Shown here in pieces: positions 14,452 to 57,204 of a DNA stretch of 64,000 nucleotides. The notes under the pieces are model-generated. The model had not been told where the DNA came from. It worked only from the letters and a program-made list of their open reading frames with translations, and ran no database searches. The stretch's first letter is position 1; the number at the start of each line of letters is the position of its first letter. The stretch is from positions 2,144,001 to 2,208,000 of the forward strand of contig CBDAOI010000004.1 of the NCBI GenBank assembly GCA_965198005.1. The letters are read 5' to 3'. The translations under genes were made by a program, and so were the position numbers. This DNA is from Spirochaetia bacterium. Lineage in GTDB: Bacteria; Spirochaetota; Spirochaetia; SZUA-6; Bin103.

Positions 14452-15813
14452 ATGGCCACGGCCGCACCGTCGGCGGCTGCCGGCCGCCGCGACCGGCAGC
14501 TTCGGGACGCCGTTCCGCCGCACAACCTCGACGCCGAGGTAGCCACCCTCGGCGCACTCCTGCTCGATTCGCAGGCGCTGGCCACCGTGTTGCGCTATCT
14601 CCGGGCCGACGACTTCTACCGGGCGAGCCATGGCAAGATCTACCAGGCGATCCTCGCACTGTTCGACCGCAACGAGGCGATCGACCTGATTACCCTCAGC
14701 GAAGAGCTGAACCGTGCGGGCGAACTTGAAGCCTGCGGCGGCAATGCCCGGATTCTGCAGCTCACCTCGGCGGTCCCTACCAGCGCCAACGTCGAGTACT
14801 ACGCGCGCATCGTTCGGGCGTTGAGCATGCGCCGGGCGCTGCAGCGGATCTCGGCGGCGATCATCGCCGATTCCCATGACGAGACGCTGGAAGTGCGCTA
14901 CATCATCGAGGAAGCGGAACGGCGCATCTTCGATATAACCGATCGCCAGCACAGCGGCTCGTTCCGACCGGCGAAAGAGATCATCGCGCAGACGGTCGAG
15001 GCGATCGAACGCCTCTACCACGCCAGCGGCAGCTACACCGGCATCCCCAGCGGATTTCCGGATCTCGACAGCCTCACCAGTGGCTTCCAGAACTCGGAGT
15101 TCATCATCATCGGGGCGCGCCCGTCGGTCGGCAAGACCGCGCTGGCGCTGACGATGGCCGCTCAGATTGCGGTTGAGCAGCAGCGTCCGGTCGGATTCTT
15201 CACCCTGGAAATGTCCGCCGTCGCCTTGATGCAGCGCCTGCTCGCCAGCGAAGCGCGCCTCGACTCCAACCGGATCCGGTCGGGGCTCCTCAAGGCCTCC
15301 GACTTCCACAAGATCACCGAAGCGGCCGGCCGCATCTACGATGCCCCCTTGTACATCGAGGACTCGCCCAACCTCAAGTTGCTCGATCTCCGCGCCCTGG
15401 CGCGGCGGATGAAGTCGAATCACGCGGTCGAGATCGTGTTCATCGACTATCTGACGCTGATCACTTCCGAGCACCTCGAGCTGGCCCGCCACGAGCAGAT
15501 CGCGGAAATCAGCCGTTCGCTCAAGGCCCTGGCGCGCGAGTTGGACCTGCCGGTGGTCGCGCTGTCTCAGGTGCGGCGCGAATCGGAAGGGAAACTGCCC
15601 AACTTGGCGGACCTGCGGGAGTCCGGATCGATCGAGCAGGATGCGGACGTGGTGATGTTCCTGCACCGTGAGCGCGGCACGGACGAGAATCTGAACGACG
15701 TGGAGACCGACCTGATCGTAGCCAAGCAACGGAACGGTCCGGTCGGCAAGGTCAACCTGGCGTTCATCCCCGAGTATACCAAGTTCGAATCGCTGTCGAA
15801 TCGGACTCCGTGA
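14452..15813 (+). CDS. dnaB: Replicative DNA helicase
   Basis: PPHNLDAE, GARPSVGKT, IDYL, DLRESGSIEQDAD, AKQRNGP. Confidence 0.97.
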   Translation: MATAAPSAAAGRRDRQLRDAVPPHNLDAEVATLGALLLDSQALATVLRYLRADDFYRASHGKIYQAILALFDRNEAIDLITLSEELNRAGELEACGGNARILQLTSAVPTSANVEYYARIVRALSMRRALQRISAAIIADSHDETLEVRYIIEEAERRIFDITDRQHSGSFRPAKEIIAQTVEAIERLYHASGSYTGIPSGFPDLDSLTSGFQNSEFIIIGARPSVGKTALALTMAAQIAVEQQRPVGFFTLEMSAVALMQRLLASEARLDSNRIRSGLLKASDFHKITEAAGRIYDAPLYIEDSPNLKLLDLRALARRMKSNHAVEIVFIDYLTLITSEHLELARHEQIAEISRSLKALARELDLPVVALSQVRRESEGKLPNLADLRESGSIEQDADVVMFLHRERGTDENLNDVETDLIVAKQRNGPVGKVNLAFIPEYTKFESLSNRTP

Positions 15814-48909: not shown

Positions 48910-50546
48910 TGAGCGCCCAAGGGGCACCGCCGGCGACTTCGCAACACCTGCTTCCGCCACCAGAGCCTGGAGTACGTGCAGGCGCCGGCACCGTGACCGG
49001 TGGCGCGGTCGGGCCAACGCACGCTCTGTCGAGTCTCGCAGCCTTGGGGCTGCTCGTGACGGGTACGCTGTGCCTGCTCGCGGCGGTCGGCTGCTCGGTC
49101 GGGGGGTTCCCCGACAAACCGTCGCCCACTCCCCTGGCCACGGTGACGCCATCCGATCCGACGCCGCCCGAGCCGGTGGCTCCCGTCGAGCCGTCCGACA
49201 CGCCCGCCACGCCGCCGGACGCGCCGGTTACTCCGGCCCCGGTCACTCCCGACCCGCCGATCGACCATGGCAATACGGCCGATACCGCAACCCTCATCCA
49301 GCCGGAGTCCCCGATCACCGGGCGGCTCGAAAGCGCGGACGACGTCGATTACTTCAAGCTCGAAGTGAGCTCCTCGAGCCTCGTGGTTGCAGCAGCCGAC
49401 TACGGCAAGATTTCGGACTACTTGTACCCCGACTACGGGAACGTCGTCGTCCGGATCGAAACCAGCGACTACCGGTCGGACAACGATGACCACTTTGACG
49501 CGGCGAGAGTGACCCTGTTCTCACCCCCGCCGCCGGCGTCTCCCAAAACACTCTACGTCAAGGTCACCAGCGCGCAGGGGGCAACCCGGTACGATCTTGC
49601 CGTCTGGTTGGCCGACCTCGCTGTTCCGAGCCACGCGGATGGACCCTTCCGGATCGACCTGTGGTTCCTCAGCCCGGAGCCGACCGCGGCGCAAAAGAAG
49701 ATCTTCGAGGAAGCCGTGCAGGTCTGGGAACGCGTCATCTCCGCGGGGGTGCGCGACTACTTCATGTCGAGGTCCTACTGGCGCTGCGACGACGACGATC
49801 CGTCCCCGTTCGGCCGGTACGTCGACGATCTGCTGATCTACGTCCGGATCGAGAGCATCGACGGTCGCGGCGGAACGGTGGCGCAGGCGGGGCCTTGCTG
49901 GGTGCGGGGGGCCGACGGCCTGCCGTTCGTGGGGAGCATGATCTTCGACAGCGCGGACTTGGCGAGACTGCAAGCTGACGGCCGGCTCCGCTCCATCGTC
50001 ACGCACGAAGCGGCCCACGTTCTCGGGTTCGGCGTGCGCTGGGACAACGTGCTCGGCGCCGACCTGCTTCCGCTGCTGCGAGAGCCGTCCATCGTCGATG
50101 ACATGCAAGTGCCGGGACGGGACACCTGGTTCGCCGGGCCGGACGCGATTGACGCGTTCGACGACGTCGGGGGCGCCGCGTACGCCGGGAACAAGGTGCC
50201 GGTCGAGAACGATACGGACAGGTTCGGCGCCGGCGGCCTGGACGTGCATTGGCGCGAGTCGGTATTCCGCGACGAGTTGATGACCTCCCTGGTGGGCGAG
50301 AACTTCCAACCGCTCAGCAAGGTGACCGTCGCGTCGTTCGCCGATCTCGGCTACGAGGTGGATTACTCCCATGGGGAGGACTACGCCCTTCCCGCCGCTC
50401 CATCGACCTTGTTGTCCGCGCGGATGGCAGCGCTCAGCGTCGACCGCGGCACGCATGCGTACCTGGGCGATGACGTGCGCTCGGGGCCGATCGGCGTGGC
50501 CGACGCGCCGGACGACCTGGAAGCAGTCATCGACCTGCTGCCGTGA
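48909..50546 (+). CDS. Leishmanolysin-like (M8-type) zinc metalloprotease lipoprotein with Pro-rich linker and PPC domain
   Basis: AVGC lipobox; HEAAHVLGFG, HWRESVFRDELMT, FADLGY. Confidence 0.82.
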   Translation: MSAQGAPPATSQHLLPPPEPGVRAGAGTVTGGAVGPTHALSSLAALGLLVTGTLCLLAAVGCSVGGFPDKPSPTPLATVTPSDPTPPEPVAPVEPSDTPATPPDAPVTPAPVTPDPPIDHGNTADTATLIQPESPITGRLESADDVDYFKLEVSSSSLVVAAADYGKISDYLYPDYGNVVVRIETSDYRSDNDDHFDAARVTLFSPPPPASPKTLYVKVTSAQGATRYDLAVWLADLAVPSHADGPFRIDLWFLSPEPTAAQKKIFEEAVQVWERVISAGVRDYFMSRSYWRCDDDDPSPFGRYVDDLLIYVRIESIDGRGGTVAQAGPCWVRGADGLPFVGSMIFDSADLARLQADGRLRSIVTHEAAHVLGFGVRWDNVLGADLLPLLREPSIVDDMQVPGRDTWFAGPDAIDAFDDVGGAAYAGNKVPVENDTDRFGAGGLDVHWRESVFRDELMTSLVGENFQPLSKVTVASFADLGYEVDYSHGEDYALPAAPSTLLSARMAALSVDRGTHAYLGDDVRSGPIGVADAPDDLEAVIDLLP

Positions 50547-50592
50547 GGAGAAGGTGCGCCCCCCTCGGGCCGGCATGTGCTACCATACCTGC

Positions 50593-51696
50593 GTGCCAAG
50601 ACTCGTAAGTGTCGAAGTTAACGGTTTCCGGTCCATTAAGGAAGCGAAGCTGGATCTCAGCCCGATCAACATTTGTGTTGGATCCAATGGAGCCGGAAAG
50701 AGCAATCTTATCGCCTTCTTCAAGTTGCTGAACGAGCTCATGGGCGGCCGCCTGCAGCACTATGTCGCTACCACTGGACGGGCGGCTGCCAATCTCTATT
50801 TCGGCCCGAAAATGACACCACAGCTTGAAGCGAAACTCAAATTCGAAGCCGATCAGGGCACGAACACTTACCATATGAGATTGTTCCACGCTGCCGGCGA
50901 TTTGCTCGTATTCGCAGAGGAAAGCCTCTCATTCCAGGCTCTCGATCGCGACTTTCCTCAACATGTATCTTTGGGAACAGGACATCAGGAGGCTCTAGTA
51001 AGAGAATTCGTCGAAGGAGAGCCGCTTCTGAATACTCTGAGGAACTTCCTGAATCACTGCCGCGTCTACCACTTCCATGACACTTCGCCGACTGCACGGA
51101 TTCACCAGCATTGTTTTGTCGAAGACAACCGCTGGTTGATGTCGGATGCCGGGAATCTCGCGGCGATCCTCTACCGAATGAAATCCGAGAGTAATGCAAC
51201 ATATCGTCGGATCGTGAGAAACATACGGCAGGTGGCGCCGTTCTTCCTAGACTTCGACCTCGAGCCGGCCGGTCCGCACAAGAAGGAGCTGCTCCTCAAC
51301 TGGCGTCACCGCGATTCGGATCTCCTGTTCGGCCCGCATCAGCTATCTGATGGAACGCTGCGTGCAATGTGCCTGATTACGCTGTTGCAGCAGCCGGGGG
51401 ATGACTTGCCCTACTTGGTCGTAGTCGATGAACCGGAGCTCGGATTGCATCCGCAAGCTCTCAATTTGATTGCATCACTGTTTCAGGCCGTAAGCGAGAA
51501 CTTGCAGATTCTCGTGAGTACGCAATCCAGCACGTTTGTAGATTGCTTCGATCCAGGGGACCTTATCGTCGTCGAACGAGAACAAGGCTCCACGACCTTC
51601 AAACGACCAGAGCCGGCAATGCTCGAAGCGTGGCTAGATGAGTACTCACTCGGTGAACTCTGGGAGAAGAACGTCATCGGCGGGGGACCGCATTAG
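50593..51696 (+). CDS. ABC/AAA_21-type ATPase, partner gene absent
   Basis: GFRSI, GSNGAGKSN, YHFHDTS, LSDGTLR, DEPELGLHP, STQS, WLDEYSLGELWEKN; lower GC. Confidence 0.9.
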   Translation: MPRLVSVEVNGFRSIKEAKLDLSPINICVGSNGAGKSNLIAFFKLLNELMGGRLQHYVATTGRAAANLYFGPKMTPQLEAKLKFEADQGTNTYHMRLFHAAGDLLVFAEESLSFQALDRDFPQHVSLGTGHQEALVREFVEGEPLLNTLRNFLNHCRVYHFHDTSPTARIHQHCFVEDNRWLMSDAGNLAAILYRMKSESNATYRRIVRNIRQVAPFFLDFDLEPAGPHKKELLLNWRHRDSDLLFGPHQLSDGTLRAMCLITLLQQPGDDLPYLVVVDEPELGLHPQALNLIASLFQAVSENLQILVSTQSSTFVDCFDPGDLIVVEREQGSTTFKRPEPAMLEAWLDEYSLGELWEKNVIGGGPH

Positions 51697-51727
51697 TGGC
51701 TCCCAATAAACAGACTTCGCAACTGCT

Positions 51728-54281
51728 TCACGTCTTCATCCGCGTGTCGGCGGGATCGAACGTCGTCAGGCCGGACGCGACGGTCACCGGAAAGCGCTCG
51801 TTCATGTACAGCACCTGCAGCTCGGTGGCGGGCACGGCGTGCTCGGGCGGCAGGTAGGCGAACAGCAGGTACCGGCCCACCGACGGCCCCATGCCGGCGG
51901 AAGTGACGCGCGACTCGCGACCGTGGCGGTCGACGATGCGCGCGCCGTCGGCGGTCAGGATCGGCTCGTTGCCGCCGGTGGGGAAGCGGGGGATGCCGGC
52001 CGCGCCGACGTGGTCGTCCATGGTCAGGGCGCACATCTGCGCCGCGGGGGCGGCGGCGCGCGCCTCGAGGTAGGCCGCCTTGCCGATGAAGTCCGCCGCG
52101 CTTCACCCGCGGCCGCGCCAGACCGGCCTCCACCGGCGAGTACTCGGCGCTGAGGTCGGAGCCCATCAGCAGGTAGCCCTTCTCCATGCGGCCGGTGGTG
52201 CCGTACACGCCGATGCCGACCGGCCGGGCGTCGAACCGGCGGCCCGCCTCCCACAGCGCGTCCCACAGGCGCACCCCATGCTGCGTGCGCGCGTAGAGTT
52301 CCCAGCCGCTGTCGCCCACGTAGGAGATGCGCAGCATGGTCACCGGCACGCCGTCGATGATCGCCTCCCGCACCGTGCCGTAGGGAAACTCCGCCTGCGA
52401 CAGGCCGGTGTCGGTGATGCCGGCCAGCAGGGCGCGCGCATCCGGCCCCCACACGCCGACGGTGCACAGCGCCGAGGACAGGTTCTCGAACTGCACCGAG
52501 CCGTCGGCCGGCAGGTGGCGGCGGAACCACACCTCGTCGCGCGCCCCGTCGAAAGCGCCGGTGACCACACGGAAGCGGTCGGCGGCCAGCCGCTGGATGG
52601 TGAGGTCGGCACGGATGCCGCCGTCCGGCGTGAGCAGCGGCGTGTAGATCGAGCTGCCCGCCGGCCGGTCGCACTTGTTGACCGTGAGCCGCTCCAGGTA
52701 GGGCACCACGCCGGGACCCGAGACGTCGAACACCTGGAACGCGCTCAGGTCGACGATCCCCACCTTCTCGCGCAGGTGCAGGTGCTCGCCGTTGATGATC
52801 GGCGACCACCAGCGCCGGTCCCACTCGTGCGGCCGGTCGGGCACGCCGTAGCGCTCCACCAAGTCGGCGTTCGACCCGTACCACTGCGGCCGCTCCCAGC
52901 CGCGCGCGTCGTAGTAGTCGGCGCCCAGGGCCTCCGTGCGGTCGTGGAACGGGGCGCGGTTCATGCCGCGTTCGGAGGCCCACTGCTCGCGCGGATGCAC
53001 GATGCCGTAGGTCTTGTTGAAGTGCTCGTCTGAGCGCGCGCGGACGTGCTGCTCGGTGCGCTCGTGGGGGTAGAAGCGGGTGATGTCGGAGGCGTGCGGA
53101 TCGCACAGCCGCGGGTAGCCGTAGGTGATCCACTCGGCGATCAGGCGCGCGGTGCCGGGCCCCTCCTTGATCCACACCGCCGCCGCCGCCCACAGCTTCT
53201 CCACCTCGGCGGTCTCGCCGAGCACCTGGTGCGTGTCCGGCGTCAGTGACAGCAGCCCGTTGACCGAGTACTGCATCTCCGACCCCGCGAGCAGCTCGCC
53301 CATGATCTCGCGTGCGTGGCCGAGCTGGGGCGCGAAGTCGTCGCCGGTGAACGGCAGCTCGGTGGGCGACCGCTCCGCCTCGGCGAGCGAGGGGATGTCG
53401 TCCGGGCGCACCAGGATCGGGCGATGGGCGTAGGAGCCCACCTCCATCGCCGTGTGGCTCTGCCGCTCGTACATGAACACGTCCACGTCACGCACGATCG
53501 GGTAGCCGATCTCGTTGCCGGTCCTGCTCAGCAGGTCGATCGGTCCCAGGTCGGCCATCTGGTGCACCGCCGCGGTGAGCGGGATGCTGGCCCCGGCCAT
53601 GGCGGCGATGCGCGGGCTCCACACGCCGCACGCGATCACCACCTGCTCGGTCGCGATGGCGCCGCGGTCGGTGACCACGGCGCGGATGCGCGGCCGGCCG
53701 AACGGGCGCGGCTCCACCTCCAGCCCGGTCACTTCGGTGTTGTCCAGCACGGTCAGCACGCCCTTGGCCAGCGCCCGCTCGCGCATGATGGTGCCCGCCT
53801 TCACCGAATCCACCACCGACACGCTCGGCGTGTAGAAGCCGCCCTTGATCACCGCGCCGTTGACGAACGGCACCCTGGCCACCACCTCGGCCGGCGTCAG
53901 CAGCTCGGTCTCGATCCCCCACGAGCGCGCCGAGGTCATGCGCCGGCGCAGCTCCTCCATGCGCTCCTCGGTGCGCGCCACCTCGACCCCGCCGCAGGTG
54001 GTGTTCACCCCCAACGCCTCGTACTGCCGCTGGCTCTCCAGCGTCAACATCGCGATCTCGCGGTTGTGATCGGTCGGAAAGATGAAGTTCGACGCGTGCC
54101 CGGTGGACCCGCCGGGATTGGGCAGCGGCCCCTTGTCGACCAGCACCAGCTCGTCCCACCCCAGCTCCGCCAAGTGCCCCACCAGGCAGTTGCCCACGAT
54201 CCCGGCGCCGATCACCACGATCCTCGCCCGCGCCGGCGCTACATTCGATCCTGATACCGTTTGTTCTTTCACGACGGCCAT
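51728..54281 (-). CDS. Dimethylglycine/sarcosine dehydrogenase-like FAD oxidoreductase-GcvT fusion, frameshift near 52101
   Basis: VVIGAGIVG, GSTGHAS, GWERP, RISYVGDSGWE; C-terminus continues in another frame as ADFIGKAAY...FDPADTRMKT*. Confidence 0.88.
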
Positions 54282-54391
54282 TGGCAAGATCCCGCAGGAT
54301 TTCGTCAAGCTTCGGAGGTCCAGGTTCAGTTCGCCCACGCAGGCCGGGGAGGCCGGCATGGCTATGGTTCCGCTGTCAGGCCGGCGCCAAT

Positions 54392-54715
54392 ACTGAGGGC
54401 CGACGGGCCTTGACGGGCTTGGCGGCCCTCAGCATTTGCCGCTCCTGCCGCTCCAGAAGAGCTTGACAGATTCCGCTCACTCTTGGTACCGTGCTGATAG
54501 CAGTACGCGGCAGCAGGTCTATGGTTCAGCGGGTTCGGGTCCATCAGGACGGTAGGGACGGGATTCGGACCCGCGACCCCTGGGTATCGCCAGGAGCACC
54601 GGTGTCTGAGGCCGGCGCAATAAACCACTCTGCCACCCTACCCTGCGGCGACTGGGGGCCGGCCGGCCGTGATTGGCTGGCGGCCCTCAGCGTTTTCCGC
54701 TCCCGTAGCTTGACA
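54392..54715. repeat. Diverged ~65-75 bp direct repeats flanking the tRNA-like gene
   Basis: 54392-54468 and 54651-54715 share ACTG(A/G)GGGCCG...GGCGGCCCTCAGC.TTT.CCGCTCC...AGCTTGACA. Confidence 0.8.
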
Positions 54716-55683
54716 CAGGCGGCCAACGGGATGGATGCTGCGCGGCCATCCAGCGTGTTTGCCCGGATGCGTCGCTCGATCAGGTCGACGAACGTGGGGT
54801 TCAACTCTACTCCGACCCATCTTCTTCCCAGGTCCTGGGCGGCGAGCAGCGTCGTGCCGGAACCGGCATATGGGTCGAGTACCACGTCGTCCGGACGGCT
54901 GGTAATGGCTACGCATCTCCGCGCCAACCTCATCGGCATCATCGCGGGATGATCATCCATCGTACCGTTGCGCCGTTGGGGCTCCGTCGGGATCTCCCAC
55001 ATTGTCCGCAAGCGGCGCCCGTTCGGACCGCGGACGACGTCGACGTCATAGTAGTAGTCCTGACTCTTGGAAAGCAGAAAAACCGTCTCATGCGCCTTGG
55101 TGGGACGATCACGAACCGATTCCGGATGCGCGTTCGGTTTGTGCCAGATGACTTCCGACCTGAGCCACCAACCGGCATCCTGAAGCGCGAACGCGAGGCG
55201 CCAGGGAATGCCGATCAGATCCTTGGGCTTGAGTCCGTCCGGCGTCACTGGCCGAACCGACATCGCGCGTGCTCGGTTCTTTCGGTCCGGCGCGCGATAG
55301 CGACGGTTTCCCGAGGTATAGGCGTCTCCGACGTTGAGCCACACGGTGCCGTCGTCGGTGAGAACGCGCCGGATCTTTTCGAAAGTCTCCACGATGTTGT
55401 CGAGATAGTCGGTCAGTGGGTCATCGCGACCGATCTGCCGCTCGACTTCGTAGTCGCGCAGCGACCAGTACGGCGGCGAGGTCAACACCGTCCGGACACT
55501 CCCGGCGGGCAGGGCGTCCACGGCTTCACTCGCGCACCCGCACACGAGTACGGACCGATCCAACGCCACCGTGGAGGTCAGACCATGCGCGTCCAGCCGA
55601 ACGTAATGGTGGTGTCCAGGATGCCTGACGGTGCCCACCGCAGCTTGGCGCCGTGACGTTACCTTCATGGGGTCGCTCCCCAT
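54544..55683 (-). CDS. Orphan site-specific DNA methyltransferase (N4-C/N6-A, beta class)
   Basis: TSPPYW precedes VLDPYAGSGTT; GTVWLNVGD, KPKDLIGIPW, HPAMMP. Confidence 0.9.
   Translation of the reverse strand: MGSDPMKVTSRRQAAVGTVRHPGHHHYVRLDAHGLTSTVALDRSVLVCGCASEAVDALPAGSVRTVLTSPPYWSLRDYEVERQIGRDDPLTDYLDNIVETFEKIRRVLTDDGTVWLNVGDAYTSGNRRYRAPDRKNRARAMSVRPVTPDGLKPKDLIGIPWRLAFALQDAGWWLRSEVIWHKPNAHPESVRDRPTKAHETVFLLSKSQDYYYDVDVVRGPNGRRLRTMWEIPTEPQRRNGTMDDHPAMMPMRLARRCVAITSRPDDVVLDPYAGSGTTLLAAQDLGRRWVGVELNPTFVDLIERRIRANTLDGRAASIPLAACVKLRERKTLRAASQSRPAGPQSPQGRVAEWFIAPASDTGAPGDTQGSRVRIPSLPS
54550..54642 (-). tRNA. tRNA-like gene: Ser-type body, CAG anticodon, possibly a pseudogene
   Basis: Cloverleaf GGTAGGG/CCCTACC, G73, D arm GCAG-AGTGGTTTA-TTGC, anticodon loop CT-CAG-AC, long variable arm, T arm GCGGG-TCCGAAT-CCCGT; no encoded CCA. 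Confidence 0.8.
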
Positions 55684-55771
55684 CGTAAACGATCGACGGC
55701 CACTTGTCCGCGCCGCTTCGGGCGCCGCGCGCGTCGTCAAGGTGTACGTCCGAGGCCTCTGAAGCCGGCGG

Positions 55772-56887
55772 TCAGATGCGTCCGGTCCGGTGCAGCAGCT
55801 TCAGGTGGTTGCGCACGTTGTCGTGCTCGAAGTAGGCGTCCTGCAGGTGGCGGCGGCCGGTCGAGCGCAGCGCCTCACGCCCATGCAGCACGCGGTGCGC
55901 GGCGATCAGCAGAATCTGCCCGCCCTCCAGCCGCAAGCAAGCCTGGGCGCCGGAGGCGTTGACGCGGGTCGACAGCTCGTGGTAGGCGGCGTAGAAGTCG
56001 CCCAGCCGCGGCGCGGACAGCGGAACGGCCTGCATCTGTTGGGTGTTGAAGCGCAGCAGCCTGACGTTGCCTGCGCCGTCCAGCTCGACCATGGGATTGA
56101 CCGCGTAGCTCTCGTCCTGTTCACTGAACAGCCGAAACGGCACCGGTACCGCGCACAACGTGTGGAACTTGTCGGGAAGGTCGCTGCGCAACCCGTCGAG
56201 CACGCCGAAGCCGTCCACGATCGAGGACCCGCCGCCCTCGCACTCGTTGGCCAGCATGTGCAGCACCTGCACGCTCGGCGGCCAGTTGTAGCTGGTGAAG
56301 TCGTTGTGCGGGGCGATCGGCAGGTCGGTGTGCGCGATGCTGTATCCCCTGGGGTCGACCACCACGTTGTGGATACGGTCGAACACCACCTCGCGGATCG
56401 GACCCAGGCGCGACGCGAGCTGCTCCGACGAGTCCGGTTCGGTGGGAGCGTTGACCAGCACGCACGCGCCGGTCCGCAGGAACTCCTCGATCAGGTCAGC
56501 CCCGGTCCGGTCGTCGCGCAGAAACTCCTGGTAGTCGAACCGGCGCGGGCGGAACCGGCCGTCCCAATACGTCAGCTCGGAGCGCAACGGCACGCTCGGG
56601 ATGGCGAGCTCCCACGGGCGATAGCGGGTGCGGTGCCCGTCCGGCCAGACGATCGCCAGCGCCTCGTCTTCGCGGCCGGGATGTTCGATGGCGACCCGCA
56701 GCGGCCGGAGTTCCTTCGCCACGCGGAAGATGTGGAACCGCTTCTCCGTGGTCTGCAGCACGCGGCACTCGCCGCAACCGCAGTTGTCGCGCAGCCAGAG
56801 GCAGGGAAGAACGGTCTCCCCGCCACCATACCAGACCGCCGTCAGGGCATCGCCGTGCTCGACGACGCGGCTGATGGAGTGCTCCAT
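55772..56887 (-). CDS. Fe(II)/2-oxoglutarate dioxygenase, gamma-butyrobetaine hydroxylase-like (TauD family)
   Basis: WLRDNCGCGEC and WPDGH N-domain; HNDF, RVLHGR, RHLQDAY. Confidence 0.9.
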   Translation of the reverse strand: MEHSISRVVEHGDALTAVWYGGGETVLPCLWLRDNCGCGECRVLQTTEKRFHIFRVAKELRPLRVAIEHPGREDEALAIVWPDGHRTRYRPWELAIPSVPLRSELTYWDGRFRPRRFDYQEFLRDDRTGADLIEEFLRTGACVLVNAPTEPDSSEQLASRLGPIREVVFDRIHNVVVDPRGYSIAHTDLPIAPHNDFTSYNWPPSVQVLHMLANECEGGGSSIVDGFGVLDGLRSDLPDKFHTLCAVPVPFRLFSEQDESYAVNPMVELDGAGNVRLLRFNTQQMQAVPLSAPRLGDFYAAYHELSTRVNASGAQACLRLEGGQILLIAAHRVLHGREALRSTGRRHLQDAYFEHDNVRNHLKLLHRTGRI

Positions 56888-57204
56888 ATTCAACCACCTC
56901 GATCCGTCGTGACCGGTCTGCGGCGCGCGCACACCGGAAGCCAGGGCGAAGGCCTGCTCCGCCATCGACGTGAAGCATGCAAACTGTGCAACCGATTTAA
57001 TAGGCAGAACCTGAATTGTCAAATGTTTTTTTTCGCGCCTGTTTCAGGCGCTGGCGGTGCGCCGGAAAAGCGCCGCGGAGTCTGCCGGATGCGGGCCGGT
57101 AGAGCACCGGAGCGAGCGCAGCGCGGAGCGGCGCCGGTGGCCTTGTTTGCCTTGTTGACCAGCGCCGTGATCCCGCATAAACCATGCACCGGAGGGAGCG
57201 GCGG

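Follow-up and report, generated by a model that had tools for sequence, protein, structure and literature searches.

Can a tRNA gene whose body belongs to one amino acid and whose anticodon belongs to another be a working gene, and if so, what would it do to the cell that carries it? This question is posed by the sole tRNA gene in a 64-kb stretch of DNA from a Spirochaetia bacterium (assembly GCA_965198005.1, contig CBDAOI010000004.1, positions 2,144,001 to 2,208,000), the whole of which we call the window and whose own numbering is used below. The gene lies at 54550-54642 on the (-) strand, and ARAGORN labels it tRNA-Leu; its anticodon is CAG. Judged by its sequence, it is a tRNA-Ser-type body with a leucine anticodon, mislabelled as leucine by anticodon-based annotation. 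As to what it does, we favour, tentatively and with a probability of roughly 0.45, a cryptic, low-activity tRNA of hybrid identity, potentially mistranslating, which would be an evolutionary by-product more than a selected function.

A tRNA-Ser-type body with the anticodon CAG

ARAGORN and the Rfam model RF00005 both recognise a class-II tRNA gene of 93 nt. The RF00005 match runs end to end with 48.0 bits (gathering threshold 29, E 3.5e-07) and is the only RNA match at gathering level in the window. The sequence and the ARAGORN bracket string give a 7/5 cloverleaf, with an acceptor stem of 7 bp, a T stem of 5 bp and a D stem of 4 bp closed by a 9-nt loop; the pairs G1-C72, G2-C71, U3-A70 and C11-G24 are present. 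The anticodon C34-A35-G36 (54606-54608, (-) strand), placed by ARAGORN at position 35, lies in the loop C32 U33 CAG A37 C38. The variable region (54575-54598, (-) strand) consists of 24 nt that form a 7-bp stem with a 6-nt loop and end in C48, and it is the longest among the 20 class-II tRNAs compared. The discriminator, at 54550 on the (-) strand, is G73 and is followed by TCC, so that CCA is not encoded. Besides the closing position of the anticodon stem, where C31 (54611) and A39 (54603) of the (-) strand stay unpaired in both Rfam and ARAGORN, the stems are made up of Watson-Crick or G·U pairs throughout. The T loop, UCCGAAU, carries C55 (54568, (-) strand) at a position where uridine or pseudouridine is near-universal, and the near-universal nucleotides U8, A14, G18G19, A21, U33, U54, C56, A58 and G53-C61 are kept. 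An earlier, preliminary description of this DNA, made from the sequence alone, had reported the 7/5 fold, the CAG anticodon, a variable arm that is long, and G73, together with the oddities C31·A39, C55 and the missing CCA, and in all of these it was accurate.

The same description had proposed that the tRNA has serine identity and had suggested isotype models as a check. As references we took the tRNA-Ser (4) and tRNA-Leu (5) genes of Escherichia coli K-12, those of a Variovorax plasmid array of 23 tRNA genes (4 Ser, 3 Leu), a Peribacteria tRNA-Ser(GCU) and a Phocaeicola tRNA-Ser(UGA), and we built covariance models for Ser from 10 sequences and for Leu from 8, with the gene in question left out. 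The Ser model gave it 67.1 bits, the Leu model 28.4 bits, and the check therefore came out for serine. The training sequences reached 77-93 bits (Ser) and 85-96 bits (Leu) on their own models; across models, Leu genes scored 26.5-44.4 bits on the Ser model among the matches listed, and Ser genes no more than 41.7 bits on the Leu model. When another Ser model was made from 7 sequences, with all Ser(UGA) genes held out, the gene scored 55.3 bits, on a scale on which genuine held-out Ser tRNAs obtained 52.0-74.8 bits and every Leu tRNA at most 44.8 bits. Because Ser models of 7-10 sequences do not part Ser from Cys, these scores support serine over leucine only.

The individual nucleotides can be set against published identity rules, for which we rely on the accessible text of one source (PMC9976931). 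There, A73 is described as crucial for the leucyl-tRNA synthetase (LeuRS) of E. coli, and G73 of tRNA-Ser as an antideterminant against LeuRS and the tyrosyl-tRNA synthetase (TyrRS); leucylation depends on A15-U48, on G18G19 and on the G18:U55 pair, and C2-G71 of tRNA-Leu is an antideterminant against the seryl-tRNA synthetase (SerRS). The same text gives G1-C72 and G2-C71 as conserved in bacterial tRNA-Ser, and names the size of the variable arm, not its sequence, as the major element for SerRS, which does not read the anticodon. Among our references, base 73 is A in all 8 Leu genes and G in 8 of the 10 Ser genes (U in the other 2), and base 2 is C in all 8 Leu genes; the gene at 54550-54642 has G73 and G2-C71. 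It also has G15 and C48 instead of the Leu-type A15-U48, and its D-loop spacing, G13-A14-G15-U16-G18-G19, is of the Ser type, where the Leu references read GAAUUGG. In an alignment with its Ser family, none of the pairs G1-C72, G2-C71, C11-G24 and G53-C61 varies among the 13 sequences, the gene itself included. Base 37 is A here, and G in four of the five distinct CUN-reading Leu references (anticodons UAG, GAG and CAG; E. coli and the Variovorax array); in a second Variovorax plasmid, WDL1, tRNA-Leu(GAG) has G37 and tRNA-Leu(CAG) has A37. In short, the long variable arm, the identity pairs, G73 and the model score of a tRNA-Ser are all present and only a Ser anticodon (NGA or GCU) is missing, while of the features of a tRNA-Leu the anticodon CAG is present and A73, A15-U48, the Leu placement of G18G19 in the D loop and the G18:U55 pair are missing.

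One determinant named in the preliminary description has to be dropped. Pair 3-70 is A-U in 8, U-A in 4 and G-C in 1 of the 13 aligned sequences, so U3-A70, which had been listed as a conserved Ser determinant, varies and on this alignment is compatible with Ser identity and non-diagnostic. The remainder of its SerRS/LeuRS reasoning is borne out by the published rules, the features above and the covariance scores. We therefore regard the gene as an anticodon-remodelled tRNA-Ser that is predicted to be a substrate of SerRS.

CUG is a leucine codon in the host

Codon counts over 26 confident open reading frames (ORFs; 12,271 codons) make CTG the commonest codon of the host, with 880 occurrences (7.17% of the total, and 65% among the Leu codons); Leu accounts for 11.0% and Ser for 4.9% of residues. 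In DnaB, the conserved motif DLRESG (residue 397) has its Leu encoded by CTG (15613-15615), as had been pointed out earlier. In an alignment of 118 homologues, the DnaB positions encoded by CTG hold Leu in 76.7% and Ser in 3.7% of cells, and the positions encoded by CTC and TTG behave similarly. The majority residue is Leu at 22 of the 26 CTG positions and Ser at 1, and Leu reaches at least 90% at 17 of the 26. By this alignment, CUG is leucine in the host and no codon reassignment has taken place, in agreement with the preliminary description. With CUG at 7.2% of codons, a strongly active Ser-tRNA(CAG) would affect about 1 codon in 14.

Relatives and probable origin

Similarity searches place the gene within the tRNA-Ser family. 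In global alignments with 26 references, the nine closest are all tRNA-Ser (63.4-75.3% of its positions identical), with Ser(UGA) genes ranking first, second and joint third, and the top Leu reference reaches 62.4%. C38 is common to this gene and both Variovorax Ser(UGA) genes. At E<=1e-3, blastn against plasmids returned a single match, the tRNA-Ser(UGA) of the array on Variovorax plasmid RA8 (76.6% identity over 83% of the gene), and blastn against phages returned none. At E<=10, bases 1-34 match an annotated tRNA-Ser in 20 of the 25 rows listed from plasmids and phages, and a tRNA-Leu in none; two weak plasmid matches (L013, L014) were set aside as non-tRNA.

We also scanned 185,579 species genomes, the source genome itself not being among the matches, for a pattern made of the T arm, the 3' acceptor strand and G73, with the anticodon left free. 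Two loci were obtained, of which the Peribacteria tRNA-Ser(GCU) is the only true tRNA; the other lies on a contig (L003) of a Planctomycetota metagenome-assembled genome (MAG). On the (-) strand of that contig, at about 555-500 and 363-250, there are two tRNA units that look circularly permuted, in that the T arm and 3' acceptor strand come first and the 5' acceptor strand, D arm and anticodon arm follow 5 or 43 nt further on. The second unit has the acceptor stem and G73 of our gene, and its loop would give the anticodon UCA. Neither ARAGORN nor Rfam calls these permuted units.

A closer relative came from an unusual source. The tRNA was translated in frame into 32 residues, and HMMER with this peptide returned four matches (E<=1e-3) among 1.84 billion protein representatives. 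Three of them are long proteins of repetitive sequence; the remaining one, P0244 (142 aa), is a spurious ORF that spans an apparent tandem of three tRNA genes, one Ser(CGA)-like, one Ser(UGA)-like and a third known from a T-arm-like peptide only. Residues 61-95 of P0244 translate a relative of our gene in the same frame, with an identical D-arm peptide, VAEWFIAP, and with an equal number of codons separating anticodon stem from T arm, which means a variable arm of the same length. The codons can be read back in part: Ala (GCN) over positions 30-32 and Thr (ACN) over positions 39-41 give C31 and A39, and Leu-Lys (TTR-AAR) over positions 33-38 gives U33, U34, R35, A36 and A37, so that the anticodon is UGA if the Leu codon is TTG and UAA if it is TTA. 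The corresponding DNA was not found among plasmids. P0244 shows that translated tRNA genes are present in protein libraries, which can be mined for tRNA relatives.

Since P0244 has the same C31·A39, the mismatch is an inheritance from a family of Ser(UGA) type, not a mutation of decay. Positions 31 and 39 are unpaired in 2 of the 13 Ser-family sequences; the Peribacteria tRNA-Ser has them unpaired. The gene most likely descends, by these comparisons, from a tRNA-Ser(UGA) or tRNA-Ser(CGA) gene; the route to CAG would have required three substitutions if it started at UGA and two if it started at CGA, with the helices staying intact. Where it differs from related genes in the acceptor stem, the anticodon stem or the T stem, the differences are compensatory. 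Across the 13 aligned sequences, 98.5% of pair cells hold standard pairs, and both partners have changed in 16 of the 20 pairs. Compensatory changes of this kind indicate long-term structural selection in the family; they do not date its end in the lineage of the gene.

State of the gene

With the general Rfam model, the gene (48.0 bits) scores about as high as the E. coli tRNA-Leu(CAG) genes (48.5) and just below nine Ser references (48.8-57.5). Its cloverleaf lies 5.7 kcal/mol above the minimum free energy (MFE) fold, which is within the span of 0.5-6.9 kcal/mol seen for 19 genuine tRNAs; as the MFE fold differs from the cloverleaf in these equally, thermodynamics is uninformative here. The preliminary description had counted three points against function, and they do not weigh the same. 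C55 is a real oddity: of 69 distinct reference tRNAs whose T loop has 7 nt, 4 carry it, and these come from two Variovorax plasmid arrays, the carriers being tRNA-Gly(UCC) in both plasmids, tRNA-Ser(UGA) in RA8 and tRNA-Cys in WDL1. We considered C55 as a family trait and ruled this out, as the WDL1 orthologue of the RA8 tRNA-Ser(UGA) has U55 and G73. C31·A39 and the missing CCA are weaker objections than had been thought, since both are seen in relatives or references; tRNA genes that do not encode CCA are commonplace, and two Ser references are among them. The Variovorax arrays (L001, 23 genes; L016, 27 genes) have further peculiarities of their own, namely tRNA-Cys(GCA) genes of 87 nt with a long extra arm, U73 in two RA8 Ser genes, and an 8-nt T loop in two WDL1 genes.

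Genomic neighbourhood

The window is chromosomal, with rpsB, tsf, cdsA, rseP, dnaB, mutL and genes for a class A penicillin-binding protein and a UvrD-like helicase, and its GC content is about 60-73%. The nearest named relatives of DnaB are 71-83% identical and are labelled as Spirochaetaceae or Spirochaetales MAGs; by its sequence the host is probably a high-GC spirochaete. The tRNA gene is third in a (-) strand run of four, behind a gamma-butyrobetaine-dioxygenase-like gene (55772-57022) and a Type II N6/N4 DNA methyltransferase ORF (54544-55740), and ahead of a dimethylglycine/sarcosine-dehydrogenase-like (DMGDH-like) gene.

The methyltransferase matches Pfam N6_N4_Mtase (3.2e-48) and PADLOC MTase_II (2.3e-99, residues 61-328), and its homology, in profiles and relatives alike, ends at about residue 328-349. 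Across the tRNA, the tail of this ORF has a flat GC content at the three codon positions (0.66/0.68/0.72), and all of 119 relatives end 2-34 residues past an IERR helix, the tail in question occurring in none. By these comparisons the part of the ORF that passes through the tRNA is non-coding. The methyltransferase parts from the usual C-terminus of its family (TPNLFAA...) at about 54690-54760 on the (-) strand, and that C-terminus was not found in frameshifted form in three frames. Seven of the 119 relatives (P0125, P0126, P0130, P0133, P0134, P0137 and P0139) have a recurrent tail, AEW/AGW-D/E/A-L/I-A, after variable linkers. We tried this tail as a read-through of a tRNA and rejected it, as the implied position 8 varies among A, C and G; it looks like either a conserved downstream element read through or an optional C-terminal motif.

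Because the earlier description had likened the tRNA to bacterial allo-tRNAs on mobile DNA, the history of the methyltransferase matters. Its GC content at third codon positions (GC3) is 0.75, compared with 0.84-0.89 in native genes; it is 80-84% identical to its relatives, two of them labelled Spirochaetaceae, and DnaB is 83-84% identical to its own. As this divergence matches that of DnaB, we do not treat the methyltransferase as clearly mobile despite its lower GC3, and the likeness to mobile DNA is ambiguous. The methyltransferase and tRNA as a mobile unit were also sought by tblastn; the matches on plasmids (106 records, the best at 56%) and on phages (234 records, the best at 50%) pointed to no neighbouring tRNA, their flanks being uninspected.

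Two copies of a GC-rich hairpin flank the tRNA on the (-) strand. Copy 1 (54643-54705, core 54678-54703; -34.1 kcal/mol, z -2.6) lies directly upstream of it, and copy 2 (54380-54445, core 54420-54445; -37.7 kcal/mol, z -3.9, with none of 200 shuffles as stable) lies between it and the DMGDH-like gene. The copies share a 26-nt core, 24 of 26 nt being identical by blastn, and copy 2 was also detected as inverted repeat I1; there are no further copies within the window, and a permissive Rfam scan of the flanks gave only chance-level matches to miRNA-like hairpins. A wider duplicated module that we had entertained was reduced by blastn to this core and the hairpin.

The DMGDH-like gene (51693-54359, (-) strand; GC3 0.89) encodes 888 aa with the Pfam domains DAO, FAO_M and GCV_T, that is, a flavin adenine dinucleotide (FAD) oxidoreductase with a GcvT domain. 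In tblastn against plasmids, the best matches of its protein are on haloarchaeal megaplasmids, at 48-51%, and the best listed alphaproteobacterial ones (Paracoccus) reach 38-39%; this may point to a saline habitat or to the transfer of a catabolic gene between domains. Convergent with it, and overlapping its end by 4 nt, is the gene of an AAA ATPase (50371-51696, (+) strand; GC3 0.65) that matches the candidate defence family HEC-01A of PADLOC (8.4e-135) and, more weakly, MAD3, AbiLi and Old-type proteins. In the bacterial tRNA-Pro hybrid family, which like our gene combines an identity with a conflicting anticodon, although for other amino-acid pairs, a dedicated synthetase gene is adjacent. 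We examined the 888-aa ORF as an aminoacyl-tRNA synthetase in this style and rejected it, the protein being a DMGDH-like oxidoreductase, and the annotation of the window has no synthetase near the tRNA.

What the gene may be

In the reading that we favour, the anticodon of a gene of tRNA-Ser lineage, closest to tRNA-Ser(UGA), would have been remodelled to CAG. The methyltransferase homology stops about 50-100 nt ahead of the tRNA, on the same strand, and any transcript of the tRNA would therefore most likely be a read-through product, from which RNase P, 3' trimming and CCA addition could mature the tRNA. SerRS would charge it on account of G1-C72, G2-C71, C11-G24, G73, G15 with C48 and the very long variable arm, and LeuRS would reject it, as it has G73 for A73 and neither A15-U48 nor G18:U55. 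The mature Ser-tRNA(CAG) would then compete with the normal tRNA-Leu of the host at CUG, Ser replacing Leu, and only weak or rare activity would be tolerable because CUG is the commonest codon of the host. Transcription, processing, serylation, decoding and low activity of this tRNA are steps that we infer; the reading is favoured because the gene is intact, because any read-through transcript could be matured and because SerRS ignores the anticodon.

Several observations weigh against this reading. A 64-kb window is what we see of the genome, and the other tRNAs of the host, including any canonical tRNA-Leu(CAG), lie outside it. On the Ser models, tRNA-Cys genes reach 55.4-59.0 bits. C55 removes the G18:U55 tertiary pair, neither a sigma-70-like promoter nor an intrinsic terminator was found in 54200-55000, and an ORF runs over the tRNA gene. 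Full activity of a Ser-tRNA(CAG) would be expected to harm this host severely. The preliminary description had looked to relatives for a conserved CAG anticodon, and none came to light: an orthologue with CAG was found neither in the 3'-half scan of species genomes nor in blastn against plasmids and phages, nor when the 58-aa translated tail was used for a word search among 5.8 billion proteins, nor by HMMER against the 1.84 billion representatives. The closer relative P0244 has a UGA-type anticodon. That description had itself named relatives with a normal Ser anticodon combined with random decay as evidence that would count against it; the former half has thus materialised in P0244, and no signs of decay accompany it. 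As for the usual marks of a pseudogene, only C55 and the 31-39 pair deviate and the Rfam score is within the genuine range, while no promoter and no CAG orthologue were found and an ORF overlaps.

Several of these observations also make the case for a dead relic, which we consider nearly as likely as a cryptic, weakly active tRNA, if itself doubtful. Here a copy of tRNA-Ser would have been stranded at a rearranged junction behind the methyltransferase, without meaningful transcription, processing or charging, and its anticodon would have drifted. Besides the missing promoter and terminator, the upstream ORF that crosses the tRNA, the CAG orthologue that was not found next to a UGA-type nearest translated relative, C55 with the unpaired 31-39, and the toxicity to be expected of an active copy at a codon used at 7.2%, this account can point to the methyltransferase, which loses its usual C-terminus where the hairpin and the tRNA start, suggesting rearrangement. 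It also has a precedent in an allo-tRNA pseudogene overlapping an ORF that is described in the main text of Mukai et al. (PMC5389517). A relic would, however, hardly be expected to keep its five helices intact save for 31-39, a mismatch common to P0244, or all the other near-universal nucleotides, or an Rfam score and a cloverleaf energy within the range of genuine tRNAs. Moreover, CAG lies at least two substitutions away from every Ser anticodon, and we estimate the chance that two or more changes fall on the three anticodon positions at about 1% for five random hits over 93 nt. At the other end of the scale, an intact and selected gene could be a conditional mistranslator or toxic tRNA, deployed under stress or phage infection for proteome diversification or growth arrest, with C31·A39 and C55 as attenuators and with its expression tied to the methyltransferase transcript or to the hairpin shared with the downstream catabolic gene. 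The structural intactness of the gene, the same hairpin element ahead of both the tRNA and the catabolic gene, and defence-type genes nearby (the Type II methyltransferase at 54544-55740 and the HEC-01A ATPase at 50371-51696) would fit; in the literature, as far as the accessible texts go, G33 curtails decoding by the tRNA-Ser(CAG) of Candida (PMC11415595) and allo-tRNAs are associated with toxin-antitoxin loci (PMC5389517). Yet the hairpin repeat is robust over 26 nt only and has no Rfam match, the neighbours do not form a recognised system that includes a tRNA, and C31·A39 is ancestral, not a new attenuator. We consider it unlikely.

Two further explanations carry still less weight. The gene could be a tRNA-like element without a role in translation, either a processing or stability signal in an operon transcript or a former integration (att) target. 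Its location between two genes of the same strand, with hairpin repeats on both sides, would suit the former, and tRNA genes are common integration targets; but the window has no partial copy of the 3' end of the tRNA (<=3 mismatches in 21 nt), no integrase is adjacent, and the full set of tertiary nucleotides is kept, which a mere processing signal would not need. This makes such an element very unlikely. Least credible of all, and highly improbable, is a genuine host tRNA-Leu(CAG) as labelled by ARAGORN. A high-GC host needs a tRNA with this anticodon, and one tRNA-Leu(CAG) of a plasmid array also has A37; against this stand the LeuRS antideterminant G73, G15 with C48, G2-C71, the Ser-type D-loop spacing, and 28.4 bits on a Leu model on which true Leu tRNAs score 85-96. 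The cryptic, weakly active tRNA remains our preferred explanation.

Comparison with known tRNAs

The nearest known genes are those of tRNA-Ser(UGA) (Variovorax L001:2994-3087 and L016:3001-3093, Phocaeicola L015:1496-1581, and P0244), which like our gene are 7/5 class-II tRNAs with a long variable arm. They have a D arm of the GGCAGAG-GG...AUUGC type and the pairs G1-C72, G2-C71 and C11-G24, as it has, and their identity to it is 72-75%. Positions 34, 35 and 36 all differ, and C55 is common to the RA8 copy only. Our gene is solitary, whereas the Variovorax tRNA-Ser(UGA) genes sit in tRNA arrays. It is not a tRNA-Sec, of which the 8/5 fold, the 6-bp D stem with a 4-nt loop and the anticodon UCA are all absent.

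Conflicts between serine identity and a leucine anticodon have been described before. Allo-tRNAs with serine identity and the anticodons GAG and UAA insert Ser at Leu codons in E. coli and cause growth arrest and death, according to the main text of Mukai et al. 2017 (PMC5389517). Like our gene, they are bacterial and carry SerRS identity elements under a non-Ser anticodon, and some copies are pseudogenes that overlap ORFs; the same text defines them by an 8/4 or 9/3 acceptor/T-stem, which makes a 12-bp acceptor branch, whereas the gene at 54550-54642 is 7/5. 'CAG' has no occurrence in that main text. The tRNA-Ser(CAG) of the CUG-Ser1 and CUG-Ser2 yeast clades, as described in the accessible parts of PMC11415595 and PMC8629427, is likewise of Ser type, has the anticodon CAG and derives from tRNA-Ser. 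A37 is found in our gene as in the CUG-Ser2 form, and coexistence with a tRNA-Leu(CAG), as in the yeast Ascoidea, would be possible. The yeast genes, however, are eukaryotic nuclear genes in hosts with adapted CUG usage, whereas this host uses CUG more than any other codon and its CUG positions align with Leu, and the bacterial gene is known here from sequence alone. Human tRNA-Ser anticodon variants (PMC11415595, accessible text) are also a natural conflict of identity and anticodon, with different amino-acid pairs. In how it would work, our gene is like the yeast tRNA-Ser(CAG) and the Ser allo-tRNAs, and it is a member of neither group. A canonical bacterial tRNA-Ser with the anticodon CAG was not found in the literature searched, which comprised open texts including PMC5389517, PMC7609411, PMC9976931, PMC8629427 and PMC11415595, without supplements or subscription papers.

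Significance

Codon reassignment and programmed mistranslation draw their raw material from natural tRNAs in which charging identity and anticodon conflict. Within the literature searched, a Ser/Leu conflict in bacteria is documented only for aberrant allo-tRNAs, and reading of CUG as Ser only in yeasts. If the gene described here is inactive, it is a caution about anticodon-based annotation, which calls tRNA-Leu a molecule whose identity features should keep LeuRS from accepting it. If it were a conditional mistranslator, it would bring proteome-wide ambiguity to the most-used codon of the organism. If it is active, then a canonical bacterial tRNA-Ser(CAG) at a codon used at 7% would probe, in an extreme case, how much ambiguity a cell can bear, and it may show the ambiguous-intermediate route at its first step.

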